A stretch of DNA of 64,000 nt from Schmidtea polychroa (Eukaryota), in assembly GCA_044892525.1 (NCBI GenBank), contig CM097885.1, positions 9,302,001 through 9,366,000 on the forward strand. The letters are read 5' to 3'. Under the pieces are notes generated by a model that was not told the DNA's origin, made no database searches, and was given only the letters and a program-made list of their open reading frames with translations. The position numbers and the translations under genes are program-made. Of the stretch, positions 24,004-60,630 are shown in pieces (position 1 is the first letter of the stretch; the number at the start of each line of letters is the position of its first letter).

Positions 24004-24966
24004 TTAACCTTCAATTTGAAGATATTTGGTAAAACAATAATTATTCAAGCTATTTTTTACATCTATTGCAGTTGGTCGTTTTGTTGAAACTTTAATCAGC
24101 ATTCTTTGAATTATAGTTGCAACAAATGAATCAGTGTTTTGAACATTAGTCAGATTTATTTCGTCTTTGATAGTTATATTTTTAATTTCATCCACCTTTA
24201 AAACATTCGGATTCAATGGATGATAACCGGTATAAAGAATTATCATGACAATCGCACATGACCATATGTCAACTGCTAAAGTTTGAGGTTCGTTTAAAAG
24301 AATTTCTGGTGCTATGTACCCCACCGTCCCTACTAGACACACAACCGGATTTTTCTTATCATAAAAAATAGAGAGACCGAAGTCGATTAATTTCACTTTT
24401 AACAGGATTTTGTTATATTTGTAACAGACAATATTTTCCAATTTTATATCCCGATGAATGATGGACTTTGAATGAATGAATGAAACTGCACTAAATATTT
24501 GTATCGTTATTGTTAGAGCAGTACCTACAGTCAGTTTTCCATGAGACATAATCTCATTACAGAGATCGCCACCGCTGGCAAACTCGTATATAAGTGATTT
24601 TCCTAATATGCAGGTGTCAAAGCATTCAATGAAGGGAATTATATTTTCATGCTGACCTATTTTAAGCATCATTTTTAATTCAGTGATATAAAATTCAGAA
24701 TTCTTAAACACTTTCTGAACGTATAATTTTTCAGTTCTTTCCTCTTCCACGAGCAATACCATTGCCCCTTTGGTATTGTTTAAAGGTTTCACAACAATAT
24801 AATCATTTGTTTGCTCTTTGCTGAAATTTGACTTCAATTTAGAAATTAGTGGCGCAAAATTACCTCTTGTTATGCTCTTTATTATCGATCTAACTTTTGA
24901 AGTTGATTTTTTGGATTTGGTATTTTTATCATTTTTATTTTGTAGACTTTTGGTAAAGATTTTCAT
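24004..24966 (-). CDS. Intronless Ser/Thr protein kinase (CAMK-like), paralogue 1
   Basis: Uninterrupted ORF with the beta3 Lys (YVQK), alphaC Glu, HRDIKLEN, DFG, GTVGYIAPE, DIWSC and KRPTA. First ATG at 24966; the ORF track starts upstream at a TTG (25047). No GxGxxG loop. Confidence 0.9.
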   Translation of the reverse strand: MKIFTKSLQNKNDKNTKSKKSTSKVRSIIKSITRGNFAPLISKLKSNFSKEQTNDYIVVKPLNNTKGAMVLLVEEERTEKLYVQKVFKNSEFYITELKMMLKIGQHENIIPFIECFDTCILGKSLIYEFASGGDLCNEIMSHGKLTVGTALTITIQIFSAVSFIHSKSIIHRDIKLENIVCYKYNKILLKVKLIDFGLSIFYDKKNPVVCLVGTVGYIAPEILLNEPQTLAVDIWSCAIVMIILYTGYHPLNPNVLKVDEIKNITIKDEINLTNVQNTDSFVATIIQRMLIKVSTKRPTAIDVKNSLNNYCFTKYLQIEG

Positions 24967-25222: not shown

Positions 25223-25541
25223 CAGCGTTTCCCAAAGTTTTTTCACCGCGGCACCCTTTTTGATTTCAAGTTTTTGACGGAACCTTATTTACAAAAATCT
25301 TAGAATTTTAATATCAAATATTATTAAAACTAATTTTAAATTCGTACTTTAAATGTGTAGTTTAAAAGAATATAATTAAGAAACTGTTTCCCTTTGAAAA
25401 AGAATTTGAAATTGGATCGAATAAAATCGAGAATTATTTATTAATCTTTATTTATAAATCTTTTTTTTATAAATTATTTATTTACAAAAATTTCGCGGAA
25501 CCCCTGCTATCAGTCCACGGAACCCACTTTGGGAAACGCTG
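25223..25541. mobile_element. hAT (Charlie-like) MITE with 8-bp TSD TGTTAAAC
   Basis: TIRs CAGCGTTTCCCAAAGT / ACTTTGGGAAACGCTG, with TGTTAAAC on both sides. Confidence 0.93.
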
Positions 25542-25799
25542 TGTTAAACCATTAATTATTCGATTCATGTAAGATAAAGTGGAAATCTGGTTCCGTTATA
25601 TGGCTGAGAATGTAATGACAAATAAAATGGTTCCTCAAATGTGAAACACAGTAGAAATATATTAAAAAGAAAGGTTTTGGAGAAAGTTGCTTTTTAAAAT
25701 CGGTTTCTGTTTTATTTAATAGATAATAGATAGGCATAATAATTTTTGACATCCATCGAAGCCTGTGTCATGCTCCTGGAGCATTAAAAGTTGTTTAAC

Positions 25800-26540
25800 C
25801 ATACGTCATCCAGGTATTGGAGCTATACCATCGAAAACCAAAATCTACTAGTGAAATGGTTGTTGCAATAAAAACAATGTTTAGAAATGGTAAACCAGAT
25901 AATTTACAAACTGATTTGGGTAAAGAATTTTATAATAGCAAAGTTAAAGAAAATCTAAAGAAAATTACTCTGTTTTTTCACAATTCAAAGCTGCTCATGT
26001 GGAAAGGTTTAATAGGACATTAAGAGATCGATTGAAAATATATTTTGTACATCAAGGTAACAAAACTTGAATAAATGTTTTACCGAAAATAATTCATAGT
26101 ATCAATCATTCCGAACATGGAGGTCTAAAGGGTATGAGACCGATTGATGTAACATATAAAAATGCTATGAAAATATTATTTTCACAACAAGATGTAACAA
26201 AAATTAAGAAACCTAAATATAAAGTTGGTGATCATGTTAAAATAAGTAAAATATCGGCTTCACCATTCATTAAAAATTTTGACAACAACTGGAGTGACGA
26301 AGTCTTTCAAATATTGAAGATTAATACGAAACAGAGTCCCTTTATGTATGTTATTAAAGATATTGATAATAATGAAATCCAGGGTAAATTTTACGAACAG
26401 GAACTGCAAGTTATTCCGACACCATCTGTCTTTAGAATTGAAGAAATTCTAAAATCAAAATATAAATATAAGGATAAACAATATTAAGTCAAATGGCATG
26501 GATATCAAAACCCAACTTGGATATCAGCATCTCAAATTGA
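25800..26540 (+). pseudogene. Polinton-type retroviral-like (rve) integrase with C-terminal chromodomain, disrupted
   Basis: KPDNLQTDLGKEFYN, VERFNRTL, PKYKVGDHVKISK..NWSDEVFQI..IQGKFYEQELQ and VKWHGY..TWI, with frameshifts and stops. Confidence 0.88.
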
Positions 26541-27560
26541 ATGAATAGAAACAGTTTTTTCACTATTTTACCAAGCAATAGCTGTCCATTAATTCATCCG
26601 AATAATGAGGCTAGTAAATTTATCGTTGAGTTACAAAATCCCATTTACCTGCATAACATGTGGGAAGTTGCTTTGCTTGATTACACATTTGTGTACAATA
26701 CATTTCCATTTTACAGTAATTCTAAGATTGAATATAAAGAAATTGCACCGAAATCAGTTAGCAGCTTTTATGTTATTGAACCCGAAGATGATGAAATGCC
26801 AATAAAAGAATTAAATAATGATTGTTACATGTATATTACCAAGGGAGTTTTAAATATTTGTTGCGATTACCATCCATTCGAGATAACATTTGAAGATGCA
26901 GCAAGCGTAAAAAGATTAGGAGTTCCTGAACCAACAATTATAAGTCACACTGATACATTTCAAATTGTAATTCCGCCGTATGTTGATGGCATTATGAATA
27001 ATGTAATTAGAATGAAGTTAACGTACAATTTTTTACAAGATTCAGTTTTCACATTTACTGATGATTTATATATAAAGAAGCTTGAAGATTTAACCAACTA
27101 TTTAGCAAGTAATTGCCCCCATATTTTCAAGTCTGTTGAACTGAATAAAAATGTCTTCAAATTCAGTCTCGGTGAAAACATTAAAGAAGTTATATTTGAT
27201 AAAAACTTGGTCAACACACTTGAATTACAAAAACAATTATATAATGACAAACAATTTGGTGGAGTTCGTAAAGGAAAAATATTTAATCACCATCAACAAA
27301 TGTTCATCTATGGCGATATTATTGATCCGATAAATGTTGGTGATTCACTGGTCCCTCTTCTGAAAGCGGTGTGGATTAAGAAATATGAGCAAGATGAAGT
27401 TGTGCAAATACAAATAGAAAATCATATGTATATACCAGTTGGAAGAACATGTATAAACAATATAAAAATTAATATACGCGATGATAGCGGAAATTTAATC
27501 CGATTTGCAAACGGTTCAAAAACACACGTAACTTTACATTTTAGAAAACAAGATGTCTAA
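26541..27560 (+). CDS. Adintovirus penton / Polinton minor capsid protein (intact 339 aa)
   Basis: N-terminal FFTILPSNS..HPNN.AS.F.V.L..PI.L...WEVAL and C-terminal MFIYGDII.P..VGDSLVPLL..YIPV....INNI.I.IRDD.G..I.F...THVTLHFRK motifs typical of this family. Confidence 0.85.
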   Translation: MNRNSFFTILPSNSCPLIHPNNEASKFIVELQNPIYLHNMWEVALLDYTFVYNTFPFYSNSKIEYKEIAPKSVSSFYVIEPEDDEMPIKELNNDCYMYITKGVLNICCDYHPFEITFEDAASVKRLGVPEPTIISHTDTFQIVIPPYVDGIMNNVIRMKLTYNFLQDSVFTFTDDLYIKKLEDLTNYLASNCPHIFKSVELNKNVFKFSLGENIKEVIFDKNLVNTLELQKQLYNDKQFGGVRKGKIFNHHQQMFIYGDIIDPINVGDSLVPLLKAVWIKKYEQDEVVQIQIENHMYIPVGRTCINNIKINIRDDSGNLIRFANGSKTHVTLHFRKQDV

Positions 27561-27939
27561 TCCTGATATAGTTTTTCTTTATGCCAATAGTCAAACTGGT
27601 GGTGAATTACCTTATTTTGTTGGCAAACAATACGGATCTGGATGGTTAAAAACTATTGGTCGGTTTGCTCTTCCTATTCTTAAACGTATAGGAAATTTTG
27701 GTATGAAAACAGCTAAAGATGTAATAATGAATAATGCAAAAATATTACCATCTTTAAAATCCAATGCCATATCTGAATTGAAAGAGGCATTACCAGATGT
27801 AATTTCTTCATTACCAATTGTAATGGTATCAAATGAAGCATCAGAATCTGAATAGTCTGAACTACAGCCTAAGCGAAGAAAACATCGAAGGTATATAAAC
27901 AAACGAATGAAAGGACGTAGAACTATATTCGAAAAATGA
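27553..27939 (+). pseudogene. pX/pVII-like basic core protein
   Basis: QTGG and QYGSG protease-site-like motifs, amphipathic GWLKTIGRFALPILKRIG. After one TAG (27853-27855) the same frame continues as KRRKHRRYINKRMKGRRTIF to a TGA overlapping the hexon ATG. Confidence 0.7.
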
Positions 27940-29130
27940 TTTGTGGAAAAACTGAATTATGTATTTTTGATCGACCGACTCCTCAGACGGTTATAGAATA
28001 TGCGACATTTGAAGACGTATTCCCATTTAATTCAATTGTTGATAATAAAAGCGATATTGAATTCAAGATAACTGGTCTCATACTGAATATCTCGATTTGA
28101 ATGATACATTACTCTACATTAAATTAAAGATTACAAATAATAATGGAAAGGAATTACCGGTTACTTCAGATGCAAAAGCTAACAATTACTTGTTCCATAC
28201 ACTTTTTAGTGTTGTTATTGTTGATTGAAGGTGGAAACGGAAGATATACACAAAAAGCTTTAATTGAAACTATTTTAAATTATAATGGAGATAGTAAAAA
28301 CATTTGCCTGGCTCCTATGGGTTATATTCCATCTGATAAGGAAAGAACAACATTAATTGCCGGTTCTAAATTAGGTTCCCTCTGTTCTTCATTGCAAATA
28401 GATTTTATGGATCAACCAAAATATTTACTTCCAGGAGTTAATGTTAATGTAACACTGAAAGGAAACCCATCATCATTCAGTATACATTCGCTAACAGATG
28501 AACCAAAGATAAAGGTATTGGAAGCAAAATTAATGATTCGCAGAGTTCGAGTTGAACCATCAGTTTTTACAGGGCATCAAATAAGGTTAAATTCTAAAGA
28601 TGCTATATATCCAAGAAACTGTCGACTTTACAATCAGTAAAGGTTCATCGTCATTTTACAAGGAAAAATTATTTATTGACAAAAGATTACCAAATTTTGT
28701 TTTAGTGGCATTTCAAACCGAATCTCAATTTAAGGGAACATATATGGAATCCAGATCAGTCTTTAAACATTTGGATATTACATCAATCACTTTAGCCAAA
28801 AATAGTGACTATCGAGAAAAATATACACAAAACCTTGACACAAATGATTATACTACAACGTATATGCAAAGTATTGTGAGAAATCTGGAGTATTTGGATA
28901 AAAACATGAACTGTGGGATTACACTTGAAGATTTCAAAGATAAATATCCATTCTTTACATTTGTTTTGTCTCCAGATTTTGATTTGAATCAAAGTCAATT
29001 ACCAAAACAAGGAAATTAAAAATTGAGTGTAAATTTTAATAAATCACTCTAGGAATCGGTTTATGTAATAGTATACGGAGTTTTCGAAAGAGAATTACAA
29101 ATTACTGCAAGTCGATCAGTATTGGTTTGA
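27936..29130 (+). pseudogene. Adintovirus hexon / Polinton major capsid protein, frameshifted
   Basis: MICGKTELCIFDRPTPQTVIE..IEFKI..EYLDLNDTLLY.., LQIDFMDQPKYLLPGV, LPNFVLVAF, GITLEDFK..YPFFTFVLSPD, GN.K..VIVYGVFE. Several frameshifts and stops. Confidence 0.85.
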
Positions 29131-29229
29131 AAGTATTTCAAACTGTATTGGTTTAAACGTAGTATAAATGAATTAAACAATGGAAACAATTTATTATGGA
29201 GTAAGTTTTTAATTACTAATTAATTTTAT

Positions 29230-29631
29230 TTGATTAGTTCTATTCAGGTTAATCGAATTGGAAAAATGTTGTTGGGGAATCAGTTTACTGGAGTATTCCC
29301 ATTAGATAAAATCCCCTATCTGAACGCAAACCAAGCTATAGTCGTCAATACTCAATCATCAAATCTTGAAGGAGAACATAGGATTGCAATATATGTGAAA
29401 CCTGATAAAATACATGTTTTTGATTGGATGGGATATTATTATCCAGATATAATGATAACAAAACTACAAAAAATTGGTAAACCCCTTCAGTATAATAAAA
29501 TTCGTTATCAAAATCCAATGACTCAAACATGTGGTCAACATTGCCTTGCATGGTTAATTTCAATGTTATATAATTATAAACGATGTAGTTTAATAAATCT
29601 TATTAGTAAAAATGTCTCGTTATTTTATTGA
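29230..29631 (+). CDS. Adenain-like cysteine protease (start codon TTG, possibly decayed)
   Basis: GVFPLDKIP..VVNTQ....GEH(R)IAIY..FD.MG..RYQ....TCGQHC: catalytic His, Asp and Cys plus the oxyanion Gln of adenoviral-type proteases. Confidence 0.85.
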   Translation: MISSIQVNRIGKMLLGNQFTGVFPLDKIPYLNANQAIVVNTQSSNLEGEHRIAIYVKPDKIHVFDWMGYYYPDIMITKLQKIGKPLQYNKIRYQNPMTQTCGQHCLAWLISMLYNYKRCSLINLISKNVSLFY

Positions 29632-30030
29632 CTTTGTTGTTTATAATGATCATGCTGGTGGAATAATTATTAAAGAATTATGTACTATGAATATAAATAA
29701 TATTTTACGCCCAAAGTATTGGTTATTTAATGATTTACCATTTTGGTCTGGACATGAAAATTTAGATCGATCGGAATGGTATGAAGACGAAGATTGGTTT
29801 TGTCCAACATGTATATTGAGGGATGTAGAAGATACAAGTGGAATTTTCTATGTCACTGATCAAGATAAACTAACAGTTTTGAAGAATTATTTCACAAACT
29901 TAAGATTAATAAAATATTCAATACAATTATCAGAATATTTTCCTGATAATATCCTATGTCCTTACCCTGATCATTCTAATTGTGCTTAGAAAAATTGTTT
30001 AATTGCTGTGTTAGATTATTTAAGAAATTA
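29612..30030 (+). CDS. Small viral accessory ORF of unknown function
   Basis: 125 aa ORF (YFIDF..IIKELC, CPTC, CPYPDHSNCA). The frame continues briefly past the TAG (KNC). Lies within the viral gene block. Confidence 0.5.
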
Positions 30031-30329
30031 ATAAAGTTTTTGAATAAAAATTATATTATTATTAATTTTGTTATTACTCATATCATTACGAGTGCAGTTT
30101 AAATGCATGATTAATCATGTTCTCTTAGTTTGTGTGAAATTTTTATTTTGTAATGTGTGTAAGTTTTGCTTCCCAATGTTTGAAAAGTATTTCACAGTGT
30201 GTGTAAATTATATTTCATAATATGCGTGTGCATGTAATACTCTCAATTTCTATTGGGTTAATACATATTACGCAATTTATGATATATAAAGTAATGTTTT
30301 AAAATATTTCATCACTTTTATTATATACG

Positions 30330-31970
30330 TTCACCGGTTTTGATTGGGTCGAACAATTTCTTACTGAAATTGAAATGATAGGGAAATATATTGTAACACC
30401 TTATTATTATAAAAATTATCAAAAGAAAATGATAATTACAGATGAACAACAATTAATGTTTGAAAACTGCACATGCTATTTGTGCAATAAACATTTAGGT
30501 AGTCCAGTTAGGGACCATGACCATTTTACCGGTCTATATCTTGTACGTATATACTTGTACGACTTGTAATCTGCCGAGGCAAATTAGACATACCCTTCCT
30601 GTCGTATTTTATAATTTAAAAGGTTATGATCTGCATTATATCTTGAAATTTGGCCTTTCAAAATATCATTCATGGAATATTAGCTTTATTCTTTTAACCA
30701 GCGAGAAATTCCTTAGTCTTTTTGCTAGGATTGACTCATTAACTGTTTATAGACTCTTTATAGACTCTTTATAGACTCTTTATAGACTTTTATCAATTTG
30801 TCAGCGAGTCTTTAAATAATACTGTCAAAACTTTATCATCTTTACCCTTGACCGAATCAGAATTTCAGGGTACAATAATAACTGCAAAGGGAATTTTTCC
30901 TTATGATGCCGCAACTTCCTTAGAGGTTTTGCATAACACTCATCAGTTACCTCCTATTTGGAAAGATGTGATGCCCGCTGATTATGAGACAGCTCAGAGA
31001 ATTTAGCTTGAAACTTTATGTACTTCACTTTGTGATTACATGATGGTTTTTTTCCAACTATTAAGAGCTAAGTCAATTGCTCATAACCAGCTAGAGCCAT
31101 TAAATTTCTTAGGGATTCCAGGTATGTCTTGGAATTCCACATTATTAACTTTAAACTCTCCAATTGAGCTCCTCACCGATATGGAGATATATAAGTTTTT
31201 CGAGGGCGGTATCCGTGGCGGACTAACTTTTGTAAATAAGCACTATGTAAAAACAGAATCGGATACCGCATTGTTTTACATAGATATAAATAATTTATAT
31301 GGTTTGGCTTTAAGTCAATCATTACTATGCAGTAACTTCCAATGGGTTACAGATGATAATTTAATAAATAATATAATTGTTGAGTGCACAACGGTAGATT
31401 TAGATCTGCTTGATTATGGTTATACCATAGAAGTGGATTTAGAAATACCGACGTCAATTCACGATAAACTGGATGATCTTCCCGTTGCCGCTGAAAGATG
31501 CGTGTACCGGGTTCGAAAATAGAGAAGCTGTTGCTTACACACAGCCCCAAGAGGAACTACGTTTATCATTGGAGGCTTCTACAAATATTTATTAAATTAG
31601 GTGTTAAAATATCATAAACACATAGAGCAATTAAATTTAAACAAGATAAAATTTTCAAAATTAATATTAACACAAATACGGCGTAACGAACAGCGTCAAC
31701 AAATAAACTTGATAAAAACTTTGATAAATTTTTAAACAACAGTCTTTACGGCAAGACAGTTGAAAATCTTAAAAAACGTATTAATTTACGTCTGTGTAAT
31801 TCTGCACAGAAATTATTAATATTATGTTTGAAACCATTTTTTCGTAAATGTACGAAAATCGATGATGGCCTGATATCGGTTTTATTGAGGAAGTACACAG
31901 TGTGTTTGGATAGACCCAGTTACATTGGTCAAACTGTACTAGATTTATCCAAACTTAGGATGTACCAGCA
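30330..31970 (+). pseudogene. Protein-primed family B DNA polymerase, truncated at both ends
   Basis: CYLC..VRDHDHFTG..CTTCNL, PVVFYNLKGYD (ExoII), FIDS, KGIFPYD, IRGG, YIDINNLYG (motif A), FLNNSLYGKTVEN (motif B), PSYIGQTVLDLSKLRMY. Sequence ends before the DTDS motif C. Confidence 0.9.
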
Positions 31971-32144
31971 GATGATCTCGGCAGATGATCCAGATGATTT
32001 TCATGGTCCAGCAGATAATGATTATTTTGGACATAATTATTTTCGATGATGTGGTTAAATTATTTAATATGTATTGATTTTATTGCCTTGAATATTTTTA
32101 GCAGTACTTTGTGATCAATTTTTACTAGTATTTTTAAACATTGT

Positions 32145-32146
<2 letters not shown>

Positions 32147-32212
<66 letters not shown>
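32147..32212. repeat. (AAT)n microsatellite
   Basis: Pure AAT repeat. Confidence 0.95.
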
Positions 32213-32215
<3 letters not shown>

Positions 32216-32379
32216 ATGTTAAAGTTTTGCCTTGAATATTTTTAGCCATACCTTTATGAGCAGTACCTTTAGGGGGACAGAATATCTTGTCGGATAAACT
32301 CAGAACATATAATAATATAAAGTATGTGTAATAATTGTATTATGTCTTTGTTAATTAAATCAACTTAAATTTTAAAATA

Positions 32380-32870
32380 CTGCAACGTAATATATTATTT
32401 AATCAAAAAAGTATGATGAGTCGTGTGTCTTTGTTTCTTAAAATATCTTTATAGTGTAATATTTCTTTGTTTAAAATGATGAGTAATATGTCTTTGTTAC
32501 TTAACATGTTTTCATTATGTAAAATATATTTATTACACAATAGTTCTCTGTTTAAATTTATGAGTCATATGTCTTTGTTGTGTAATATGTCTTTTTTATG
32601 CAATACGCCTTTGTTATGTAACAGTACTTTGTTTAAATTGAAGAGCCATGTGTTTTTGTTTAAATATTTGACCTTAATCCGACTAACATTAAAATTTGAC
32701 CTTAAATGGTCTAAAATCGCCTTTGACCTTAAGTCTTGACCTTAAAATCGATTTTGACCTCAGTGTTTGACCTTAAGCTGTTCTTTAAATGACGTTGCCC
32801 TCAAAATTTGACCTTACGGTGTCCTACCGTGACCTTAAAATTTCCTATGACCTTATATTGATCTTGAAAA
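32380..32870. repeat. Subterminal short repeats of the viral element
   Basis: Degenerate TGTAATATGTCTTTGTT-like units followed by about nine TGACCT(T) motifs. Confidence 0.7.
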
Positions 32871-33969
32871 AAACACCTCCTTATGATGTAATTTCATTTG
32901 TGACATTATCGATTACGCAATAGTTCTTCGTTCCCGGATCCACACTTTACCCATACTTATATACAGTACTGTACAAGCATCCCGCCGAGTACAAAGAACG
33001 AAATATAAAAGTCAATCATTCACACCCATAAATACAAAACGTATATAGACGAATAAGATTATTGAGCACTCATTTGTGAAATGATGACTTATTTGCATCA
33101 ATTTTTCGAATCTGAAATAATAAACATTTTCCAGAATATTTCGTACAGCTGCATTTTTTAAATCTGGAGACTGATTATAAACATTGTTTTAATTACTAGC
33201 TTTATATAAACAAAAGATTTAAAATGAAATTAATTAATGTTAAAATACTTTTTGACTGTGGCCCCATTTGGAGGTGACAAATTTCAATGTGGCCTATGGA
33301 AATAGAAAGGTTCTCCACTCTTGGTCTAGTCAATATATATGTCAGGAACAAATTAACAATTAAGTTCAGATAACGAAGACTGCTCCATCGCAATCGATTA
33401 TTCAAACAACCCGAAAATAGGAGAGTCATATTCAATAAAATGTATTGTGAATCAAAATATCTAAAGCGCCAAGTACACTTGGTATAAAGATTTGGAATTC
33501 GATATTCCAATAGAAATGTAAACGTCGATGCTGCTCGAATCTACTTGATTTGCTAATGGAGAGATTGATAAAAACAATAATGATGAATATATTTTACCTA
33601 TTAGTCTTGTTCCTACAAAAAAATACTAATTTCATTAATAATTTTAATTTCAATTATACGACAACTCAAATCTCCCGTCAGGCTCGGATATGGGGAAATG
33701 AATTTATATATTTAATATTATAAATGTTACAAAAATAAATATCTAGATATAATACTATTAAAAATATAATAACAAAAATTTGACTTAAAAAGTTCGAGAT
33801 TATGTTTTACTCTATTAAAAGCAATACTGTTGTATGTATCATAATCACTTCGATTTAAATAACATTTTATCTCTTGATTTTAGAAAGTATAGTTACTGTA
33901 GACAAATTATATTCATTCATAAACATATTTGAAAATTTAGTTATAAGAAAGCGCCATTCAAACATTCAT

Positions 33970-34172: not shown

Positions 34173-35132
34173 TTAAACTTGATTTCGATGATATTTGATA
34201 AAAAAATAATTATTCAAGACCCTCAGTATATGTATTGCAAGTGGCCGTTTTGTTGGAACTTTCCTCACCATTCTTTGAATTATAGTTGCAACAAATGAAT
34301 CAGTGTTTTGAACATTAGTCAAATTTATTTCGCCATTGATAGTAATATTTTTAATTTCATCCCCCTTTAAAACATTCGGATTCAATGGATGATAGCCGGT
34401 ATAAAGAATTATCATGACAATCGCACATGACCATATGTCAACTGCTAAAGTTTGAGGTTCGTTTAAAAGAATTTCTGGTGCCATGTACCCCACCGTCCCT
34501 ACTAGACACGCAATCCGGCTTTTATCATAAAAAATAGAGAGACCGAAGTCGATTAATTTCACTTTTAACAGGATTTTGTTATATTTGTAACAGACAATAT
34601 TTTCCAATTTTATATCCCGATGAATGATGGACTTTGAATGAATGAATGAAACTGCACTAAATATTTGTATAGTTATTGTCAGAGCATTACTCTTAGTCAG
34701 TTTTCCATGCAACCTAACCTCTCTAGAGAGATCGCCACCGTTTGCAAACTCGTATATAAGTGATTTTCCTAATATGCAGGTGTCAAAGCATTCAATGAAG
34801 GGAATTATATTCTCATGCTGACCTATTTTAAGCATCATTTTTAATTCAGTGATATAAAATTCAGAATTCTTAAACACTTTTTGAACGTAGAATTGCCCTT
34901 TTCTTTCATCTTGCACTAACAATACCGATGCTCCATTTGTATGCTTTAGAGGTTTCACAACAATATAATCATTTGTTTGTTCTTTGTCGAAATTTGACTT
35001 CAATTTAGAAAGTAGGGGCCCAAATTGACCTCTTGTTATGCTTTTTATTATCGACCGAACGTTTGATGTTGATTTTTTGGATTTGGTTTTTTTATAATTT
35101 TTATTTTGTAGACTTTTGGTAAAGATTTTCAT
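34173..35132 (-). CDS. Intronless Ser/Thr protein kinase (CAMK-like), paralogue 2
   Basis: Duplicate of 24004-24966 with the same catalytic motifs. The duplicated block is ~34076-35245 versus ~23907-25079. Confidence 0.9.
   Translation of the reverse strand: MKIFTKSLQNKNYKKTKSKKSTSNVRSIIKSITRGQFGPLLSKLKSNFDKEQTNDYIVVKPLKHTNGASVLLVQDERKGQFYVQKVFKNSEFYITELKMMLKIGQHENIIPFIECFDTCILGKSLIYEFANGGDLSREVRLHGKLTKSNALTITIQIFSAVSFIHSKSIIHRDIKLENIVCYKYNKILLKVKLIDFGLSIFYDKSRIACLVGTVGYMAPEILLNEPQTLAVDIWSCAIVMIILYTGYHPLNPNVLKGDEIKNITINGEINLTNVQNTDSFVATIIQRMVRKVPTKRPLAIHILRVLNNYFFIKYHRNQV

Positions 35133-42468: not shown

Positions 42469-60630
<18,162 letters not shown>

Follow-up and report, generated by a model that had tools for sequence, protein, structure and literature searches.

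The Schmidtea polychroa genome (781 Mb) carries, on a 271-Mb contig, what is almost certainly a relic of a Polinton/Maverick element of adintovirus type, and this relic is very probably a real composite of two element families, here called A and B. It lies in a stretch of 64,000 nucleotides (nt) of contig CM097885.1 (locus G000:C1:9302001–9366000), hereafter the window, whose positions are used throughout. We consider it probable that an A half and a B half were joined via nesting and deletion, and that the product then decayed as inert DNA. Element homology spans 25820 to 32957, with genes from 25820 to about 32050 followed by a terminal repeat. A previous reading of this DNA from its letters (the sequence-only reading) had described a single element at 25790..32946; neither its limits nor its unity survive, as the homology starts at 25820, the terminus ends at 32957, and the stretch is an A/B composite joined at 30328.

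Positions 25820–30328 are 97% identical to family A (3.0% substitutions over 4,500 columns) and match 28 other places at 94–96% (29 candidates scored; in genome match searches the best 29–40 candidates were scored per query). Positions 30328–32957, which hold the polymerase and the right end, are of family B type. Specifically, the window polymerase shows 6.3% substitutions against B over 1,608 columns versus 67% identity to A, and its match of about 90% (gaps included) to 39 other scored places assigns it to family B. In trees of natural sequences (11 hexons, 10 polymerases) the hexon of the window groups with A and its polymerase with B, both splits having ultrafast bootstrap (UFBoot) values of 100. 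The junction is crossed by no other of the 40 scored genomic matches, and among the 28 other A-capsid places (29 candidates scored) 27 carry an A polymerase and none a B polymerase, the last being cut by a contig end. The open reading frames (ORFs) and other features of the relic are as follows.

25820..26544, + strand: rve integrase with a C-terminal chromodomain, family A, 97% nt identity (frameshifts near 25840 and 25960; stops near 26070 and 26480)
26541..27560, + strand: penton, a single jelly-roll minor capsid protein of 339 amino acids (aa), assigned by fold match; intact ORF
27553..27939, + strand: small ORF with a basic C-terminus between penton and major capsid genes, 128 aa in unbroken A copies (premature stop near 27850)
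27894..27900, + strand: TATAAAC box, predicted late promoter signal, about 42 nt before the major capsid start
27936..29130, + strand: major capsid protein, double jelly-roll and hexon-like, 97.4% nt identity to the unbroken 407-aa A ORF (frameshifts near 28080, 28220 and 28610; stops near 29020 and 29050)
29196..29580, + strand: adenovirus-type cysteine protease (frameshift near 29570)
29196–29200, + strand: predicted protease exon 1 of 5 nt, then a 37-nt GT-AG intron at 29201–29237
29612..30031, + strand: ORF139, a conserved ORF of 139 aa in unbroken copies (premature stop near 29990)
30328, no strand: junction of A-type intergenic DNA with B-type polymerase interior (about codon 578), with a 1-nt overlap and no extended homology
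30328..31969, + strand: internal fragment of a protein-primed family B DNA polymerase, of family-B type, with an endonuclease-VII-like insert and motifs A and B (frameshifts near 30540, 30750 and 31490; stops near 31000, 31620 and 31680)
31970..32050, + strand: polymerase C-terminal tail, following a 560-nt internal deletion that took motif C
32146..32957, no strand: right terminal inverted repeat of B/C type, ending ...CCCATACT; no left partner found

An assembly error joining two repeats at 30328 would agree with the lack of any bridging contig at 97% identity in four sequencing runs, though such absence proves nothing. We regard an artefact of this kind as very unlikely: the overlap at the junction is just 1 nt, both halves bear private decay that is absent from identical young copies, the locus is inside the 271-Mb contig, and an identical 403-nt contig from run X1 crosses the left junction at 25820.

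The window copy itself is inert and left-truncated, and the defective state proposed earlier is borne out. Seven genes lie on the + strand, all co-oriented, and the penton is the only unbroken ORF; pairwise alignment against natural unbroken copies reveals 19 frameshifts or premature stops over the other six. Core genes unbroken between two ends are not what is found here: six of the seven are broken and the left arm is gone. The left deletion took the ATPase, the TBP-like gene, the left repeat and 96 of the 339 integrase codons at the 5' side, the first catalytic Asp among them, and left the 3' 243. As the sequence-only reading had it, no packaging ATPase is present in the window copy and no left inverted repeat is seen in the window; nor did the 20 kb upstream (short repeat matches only) or the genome search yield one. 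About 578 codons are gone from the N-terminal part of the polymerase, exonuclease motif I with them; the absence of motif C that had been noted is explained by the 560-nt deletion. Only motifs A and B remain in the window, whereas unbroken copies carry ExoI, A, B and C (for these motifs, as for the integrase Asp, we used patterns that we take to be the standard ones). The right terminus is 75% identical to the end of the copy L037 and 71% to that of L047, its closest other genomic match reaching 78% among the candidates scored. Only this end survives, and the copy's own target duplication cannot be read.

The tight packing of genes reported earlier is largely real. The integrase stop meets the penton ATG in TGAATGA (26538–26544), and the penton overlaps the small ORF by 8 nt. 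The overlap of the small ORF's stop with the hexon ATG (27936) holds in unbroken copies, but in the window the ORF stops early, near 27850. Likewise, the phrase "seven co-oriented intronless ORFs" is right as to number and orientation, but six ORFs are broken and the protease probably has an intron.

Fold prediction was needed because no element gene reached a curated-level match when Pfam was run on the ORFs of the window itself, and PDB sequence searches with the hexon profile, the penton profile and the polymerase gave nothing relevant. An AF2 model of the window penton, built from 66 sequences (at least 77 relatives were found), has a pLDDT of 93 and matches the mavirus penton in Foldseek at E 2.8e-8. 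In VIA the same model aligns with a PBCV-1 chain at Z 14.2 (root-mean-square deviation, rmsd, 3.4; 142 aligned), with the mavirus penton at Z 12.7 (rmsd 7.2; 230 aligned) and with an aviadenovirus chain at Z 12.1 (rmsd 6.1; 248 aligned); five penton-type chains, Sputnik included, span Z 12.1–14.2, and unrelated rows reach at most 6.8. For the major capsid protein the model was that of the unbroken 407-aa A ORF, not the window gene; from 111 sequences it reached pLDDT 93 and matched iridovirus and PBCV-1 major capsid proteins in Foldseek at E 6.5e-16 (TM 0.60). An unbroken A integrase matches Pfam rve (1.3e-10) and Chromo (8.4e-6), and the packaging ATPase of family copies matches Pox_A32 at 26.7 bits (cut-off 22.8; E 4.8e-6). 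PF02945 and PF03175 score below cut-off on the polymerase, with no curated-level match in unbroken copies either; the nearest Atlas clusters of the A polymerase (0.98) contain PF03175/PF02945 in 21–40% of their members. Domains on unbroken copies and the folds thus support the Polinton/Maverick/adintovirus identity first proposed, the double jelly-roll and penton matches support its full capsid module, and the genes of the 26541–29631 region, in part through their unbroken A counterparts, have the jelly-roll and adenain matches whose absence would have counted against it.

ORF139 has relatives at 16 of 81 outside loci and falls with unnamed eukaryotic clusters in the Atlas (0.95); a Maelstrom/exonuclease lead (Atlas 0.84) was dropped as below the reliable range. 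The small ORF has relatives at the same position at 6 of 81 outside loci, and its family A copy gives no Pfam match, PLA2 and gasdermin domains included. It may be a pX/core-like gene.

That the penton alone is unbroken invites the explanation that the host kept it as a domesticated capsid gene as the rest decayed. The gene has the lowest substitution rate of all (1.9%), and the chance of its escaping any break is about 0.03 at the pooled rate, a figure computed post hoc. Yet its ratio of non-synonymous to synonymous change (pN/pS) is 0.89 (15 non-synonymous, 4 synonymous), it is one gene of seven tested, and many young copies hold identical intact pentons, and we find domestication hardly credible.

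The protease keeps the positions of its His, Asp and Gln..Cys residues. In an A copy it matches Pfam Peptidase_C5 at 22.4 bits (cut-off 21.3); the window ORF has no C5 match at E 0.1. Several observations suggest that the gene probably contains the 37-nt intron. All four young B copies have no in-frame Met upstream of the FxGVF motif, and in 10 of 13 copies, the window included, a 5-nt exon followed by a GT-AG intron of 37–39 nt would place 17 residues before FxGVF. Among outside relatives, three of four have 16 intron-free residues before the motif and the fourth has 28 (12 loci were compared, 8 of which were not readable by the search pattern). Scored against these relatives, the spliced form reaches 11–13 and the unspliced frame 6–7. 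An alternative with a 21-nt exon and 47-nt intron suits A copies and was set aside, as it is not among the listed B-copy candidates.

Elsewhere in the genome both families are represented by intact copies with both inverted repeats, the 6-bp duplication and the ATPase, as the sequence-only reading had anticipated. Family A, defined from six copies taken with their flanks, is about 15.0 kb long with 1.4-kb inverted repeats starting AGTAGG, in the order repeat-ORF, ORF100, TBP-like, ATPase, ORF91, integrase, penton, small ORF, major capsid, protease, ORF139, polymerase; family B has the same gene order and is about 70% identical to A. AGT..ACT ends with a 6-bp target duplication were seen in four of the six A copies and four of the six B copies examined. 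In Polintons generally, the integrase inserts the element with a 6-bp duplication, and replication by the protein-primed polymerase starts at the inverted ends. The ATPase, major capsid protein, penton and protease are predicted to build an icosahedral particle. The runs listed as carrying the capsid module included no RNA run. Over 4,540 nt, three of five A copies are identical to the copy L002, one differs by 0.07% and one by 1.2%; all four B copies compared are without substitution over 1,145 nt. Because several family copies are identical, A and B are taken to have integrated very recently. Exact terminal patterns number 184 for A and 654 for B, with none in reversed controls. Many B-type end pairs lie 250–700 nt apart, as short non-autonomous derivatives. 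The A inverted repeat contains a 157-aa ORF (L001:5538–6011, L003:1180–1653), hence two per element, whose relatives adjoin a TBP-like gene at 21 of 81 outside loci.

Comparison among copies demonstrates that capsid and polymerase modules have been exchanged within this genome. A third polymerase type (65% to B) accompanies B-like hexons (95%) in elements L037/L038 and L045–L047, of which L045–L047 has a 6-bp duplication of its own; L048/L049 likewise join a B-like capsid module to third or fourth polymerase types (65–67% to A and B). Two mirror-image B-type elements of about 10 kb, L028–L030 (G000:C1:32636242–32646427) and L031–L033, carry a polymerase gene in each arm. They have inverted ends and a 6-bp duplication, capsid genes were not seen in them, and they are likely copy-back derivatives.

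How, then, did the composite arise? In the history that we think probable, an A element would have inserted into a B-type element; a deletion would then have taken the intervening DNA, joining the A half to the B polymerase and right end; both halves would have decayed neutrally for a similar time; and two further deletions would have cost the left arm and polymerase motif C. Over 1,340 codons of the A part, synonymous divergence (pS) is 0.038 and pN is 0.027, values that lie near those of neutral decay. The B part (pS 0.123, pN 0.048 over 532 codons) shows neutral decay plus older lineage divergence. Assuming omega 0.2, the uncorrected A-versus-B polymerase value, the neutral component is 0.025 for A (95% limits 0.017–0.033) and 0.029 for B (0.012–0.046), from which we infer that both halves decayed for similar times, within wide limits (about 2.5–3% divergence).

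The main competing history is a once-mobile recombinant parent with an A capsid module and B-type polymerase and ends, in which the crossover itself was lost to a later deletion, now visible as the junction. Similar neutral decay in both halves fits a single insertion of such a recombinant equally well, and this, with several other points, weighs against nesting. The decay estimate hangs on omega, the B component being 0.039 at omega 0.1 and 0.015 at 0.3. No left B-type arm survives, and nesting is not directly visible. In the sole nested case (L010–L012; one of the first six copies examined) an A copy, flanked by a 6-bp duplication of its own, sits within a second Polinton; the A copy has the opposite orientation, and the outer element has a different polymerase type. 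Module exchange does exist in the genome, in L037/L038 and in L045–L047, where a B-like hexon with a different polymerase has its own 6-bp duplication, and it has been published for other lineages (10.1101/2023.08.22.554363; PMC8502044). The window differs from young A by about 5% over 29420–30320 and by about 2.5% further left (dispersion P 0.011), which hints at mosaic ancestry; it may also come from recombination among A variants. Against a recombinant parent, no surviving A/B lineage is seen because none of the 28 other A-capsid places carries a B polymerase, although with the best 29–40 candidates scored rare A/B copies could be missed, and no sister insertion was found, since genomic relatives of the right end reach 78% at best. 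We consider the recombinant parent rather unlikely overall; given a real composite, we lean slightly towards nesting and deletion. The reverse insertion, of a B-type element into A, was rejected, since none of the Polinton copies fetched has a match to the sequence that follows on the right of 32957.

Outside the relic, A and B copies share a TBP-like gene. In the A left arm it encodes 154 aa (L001:6835–7299), head-to-head with the packaging ATPase, and matches Pfam TBP at 2.7e-15. Its 88 relatives are mostly 145–160 aa long, and a profile search with the family finds solved TBPs at E values down to 3e-21. A Polinton core gene accompanies the TBP-like gene at 38 of 81 outside loci, and at 27 of the 34 of at least 3 kb; the gene is, judging from these loci, conserved across a Polinton clade in metagenomes. 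Viral contigs searched with the TBP alignment gave one weak locus with no Polinton genes. TATAAAC occurs within 150 nt upstream of five of the 12 family-A starts (ATPase, ORF91, small ORF, major capsid, ORF139), four of the five at -37 to -42 (P 5e-4 versus the element's own background), and within that distance of none of the family-A TBP, integrase and polymerase starts. The window holds three such boxes, the other two at 27452 and 29575. The TBP-like protein is predicted to switch on the packaging and capsid genes via TATAAAC. Our literature search, whose coverage lay outside subscription journals and Repbase, listed no paper that describes a TBP clade encoded by Polintons or an intron in a Polinton protease.

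The relic is flanked by two intronless protein kinase paralogues, 92% alike over 1,182 nt. They are in tandem on the - strand (24004–24966 and 34173–35132; 320 and 319 aa; Pkinase about 2e-42). The host had been described as intron-rich in its own genes; exon-like pieces of pyrophosphatase and cation-efflux genes in the window agree with this, but the two kinases do not. Just left of the relic, at 25223–25541, lies a small inverted-repeat element with an 8-bp target duplication, presumably hAT-like. A long terminal repeat (LTR) retrotransposon occupies 43595–48637 (- strand); it has ORFs for gag, pol and integrase, and its matching direct repeats are spaced by about 4.7 kb.

Polintons are defined by these same capsid genes (PMC4028283), and the class is Polintoviricetes. 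The element had been thought possibly undescribed for its host; for the host group such novelty is probably not upheld, as Polintons with full virion gene sets (major capsid, penton, ATPase and protease) are catalogued for Schmidtea mediterranea, one of 14,867 bp and one of 15,944 bp (PMC4028283, Table S1). These elements, Polinton-1_SM and Polinton-2_SM, resemble the present families in length (about 15 kb) and core genes, a comparison made by description only, and two 7-residue motifs are absent from four files of PMC4028283, a set outside which sequence file S5 lies. The AGT..ACT end motif and 6-bp target duplication are likewise shared with Polintons at large (PMC8097293). The window copy differs from such elements as a truncated composite of two families, and the families differ in their TBP-like gene and probable protease intron; no introns were seen in intact vertebrate Mavericks (PMC8097293). 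Adintoviruses (Starrett et al. 2021, PMC8502044) share the animal genome setting, the integrase, FtsK-type ATPase, adenain, hexon, penton and PolB, and near-overlapping ORFs. Transfer of virion modules between their lineages has been described (PMC8502044), the weak pfam03175 score here would fit the divergent Beta adintovirus class, and in the available text TBP appears in a figure legend only, for other midsize viruses. Nematode Polintons (Jeong et al., 10.1101/2023.08.22.554363) share with the present genome related capsid modules found with different polymerases within one genome, and an HNH-type nuclease insert in a polymerase. Their polymerases, however, are deeply divergent and come from other phyla, whereas the three types here share 65–72% DNA identity and all that the window has is a dead fragment. 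Exchange of polymerases and modules is also described in 10.64898/2026.10.13.758929. Polintons with all four virion genes, and polymerase/capsid exchange, are therefore already known.

The window copy is a case of ordinary decay, and 96% of vertebrate Maverick loci are degraded (PMC8097293); its value is as a pointer to young complete families. At least two Polinton families in this genome are very young and have full virion gene sets, and at least three polymerase types share related capsid modules. Animal Polinton particles have not been observed (PMC8097293), and a host whose complete copies integrated so recently is well suited to a search for them. In planarians, Polintons are targets of PIWI-interacting RNAs, and knockdown of PIWI lifts their repression (PMC8532177). 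One may go further and see in the locus a polymerase-swap fossil of a still-integrating, particle-making polintovirus lineage, with its own mini-TBP and TATAAAC late genes and a host-type protease micro-intron; we think this full picture unlikely. It is the young complete families, and not the window copy, that raise live questions, and if that picture were true, this genome would be a tractable one for animal Polinton virions and for module exchange in action.

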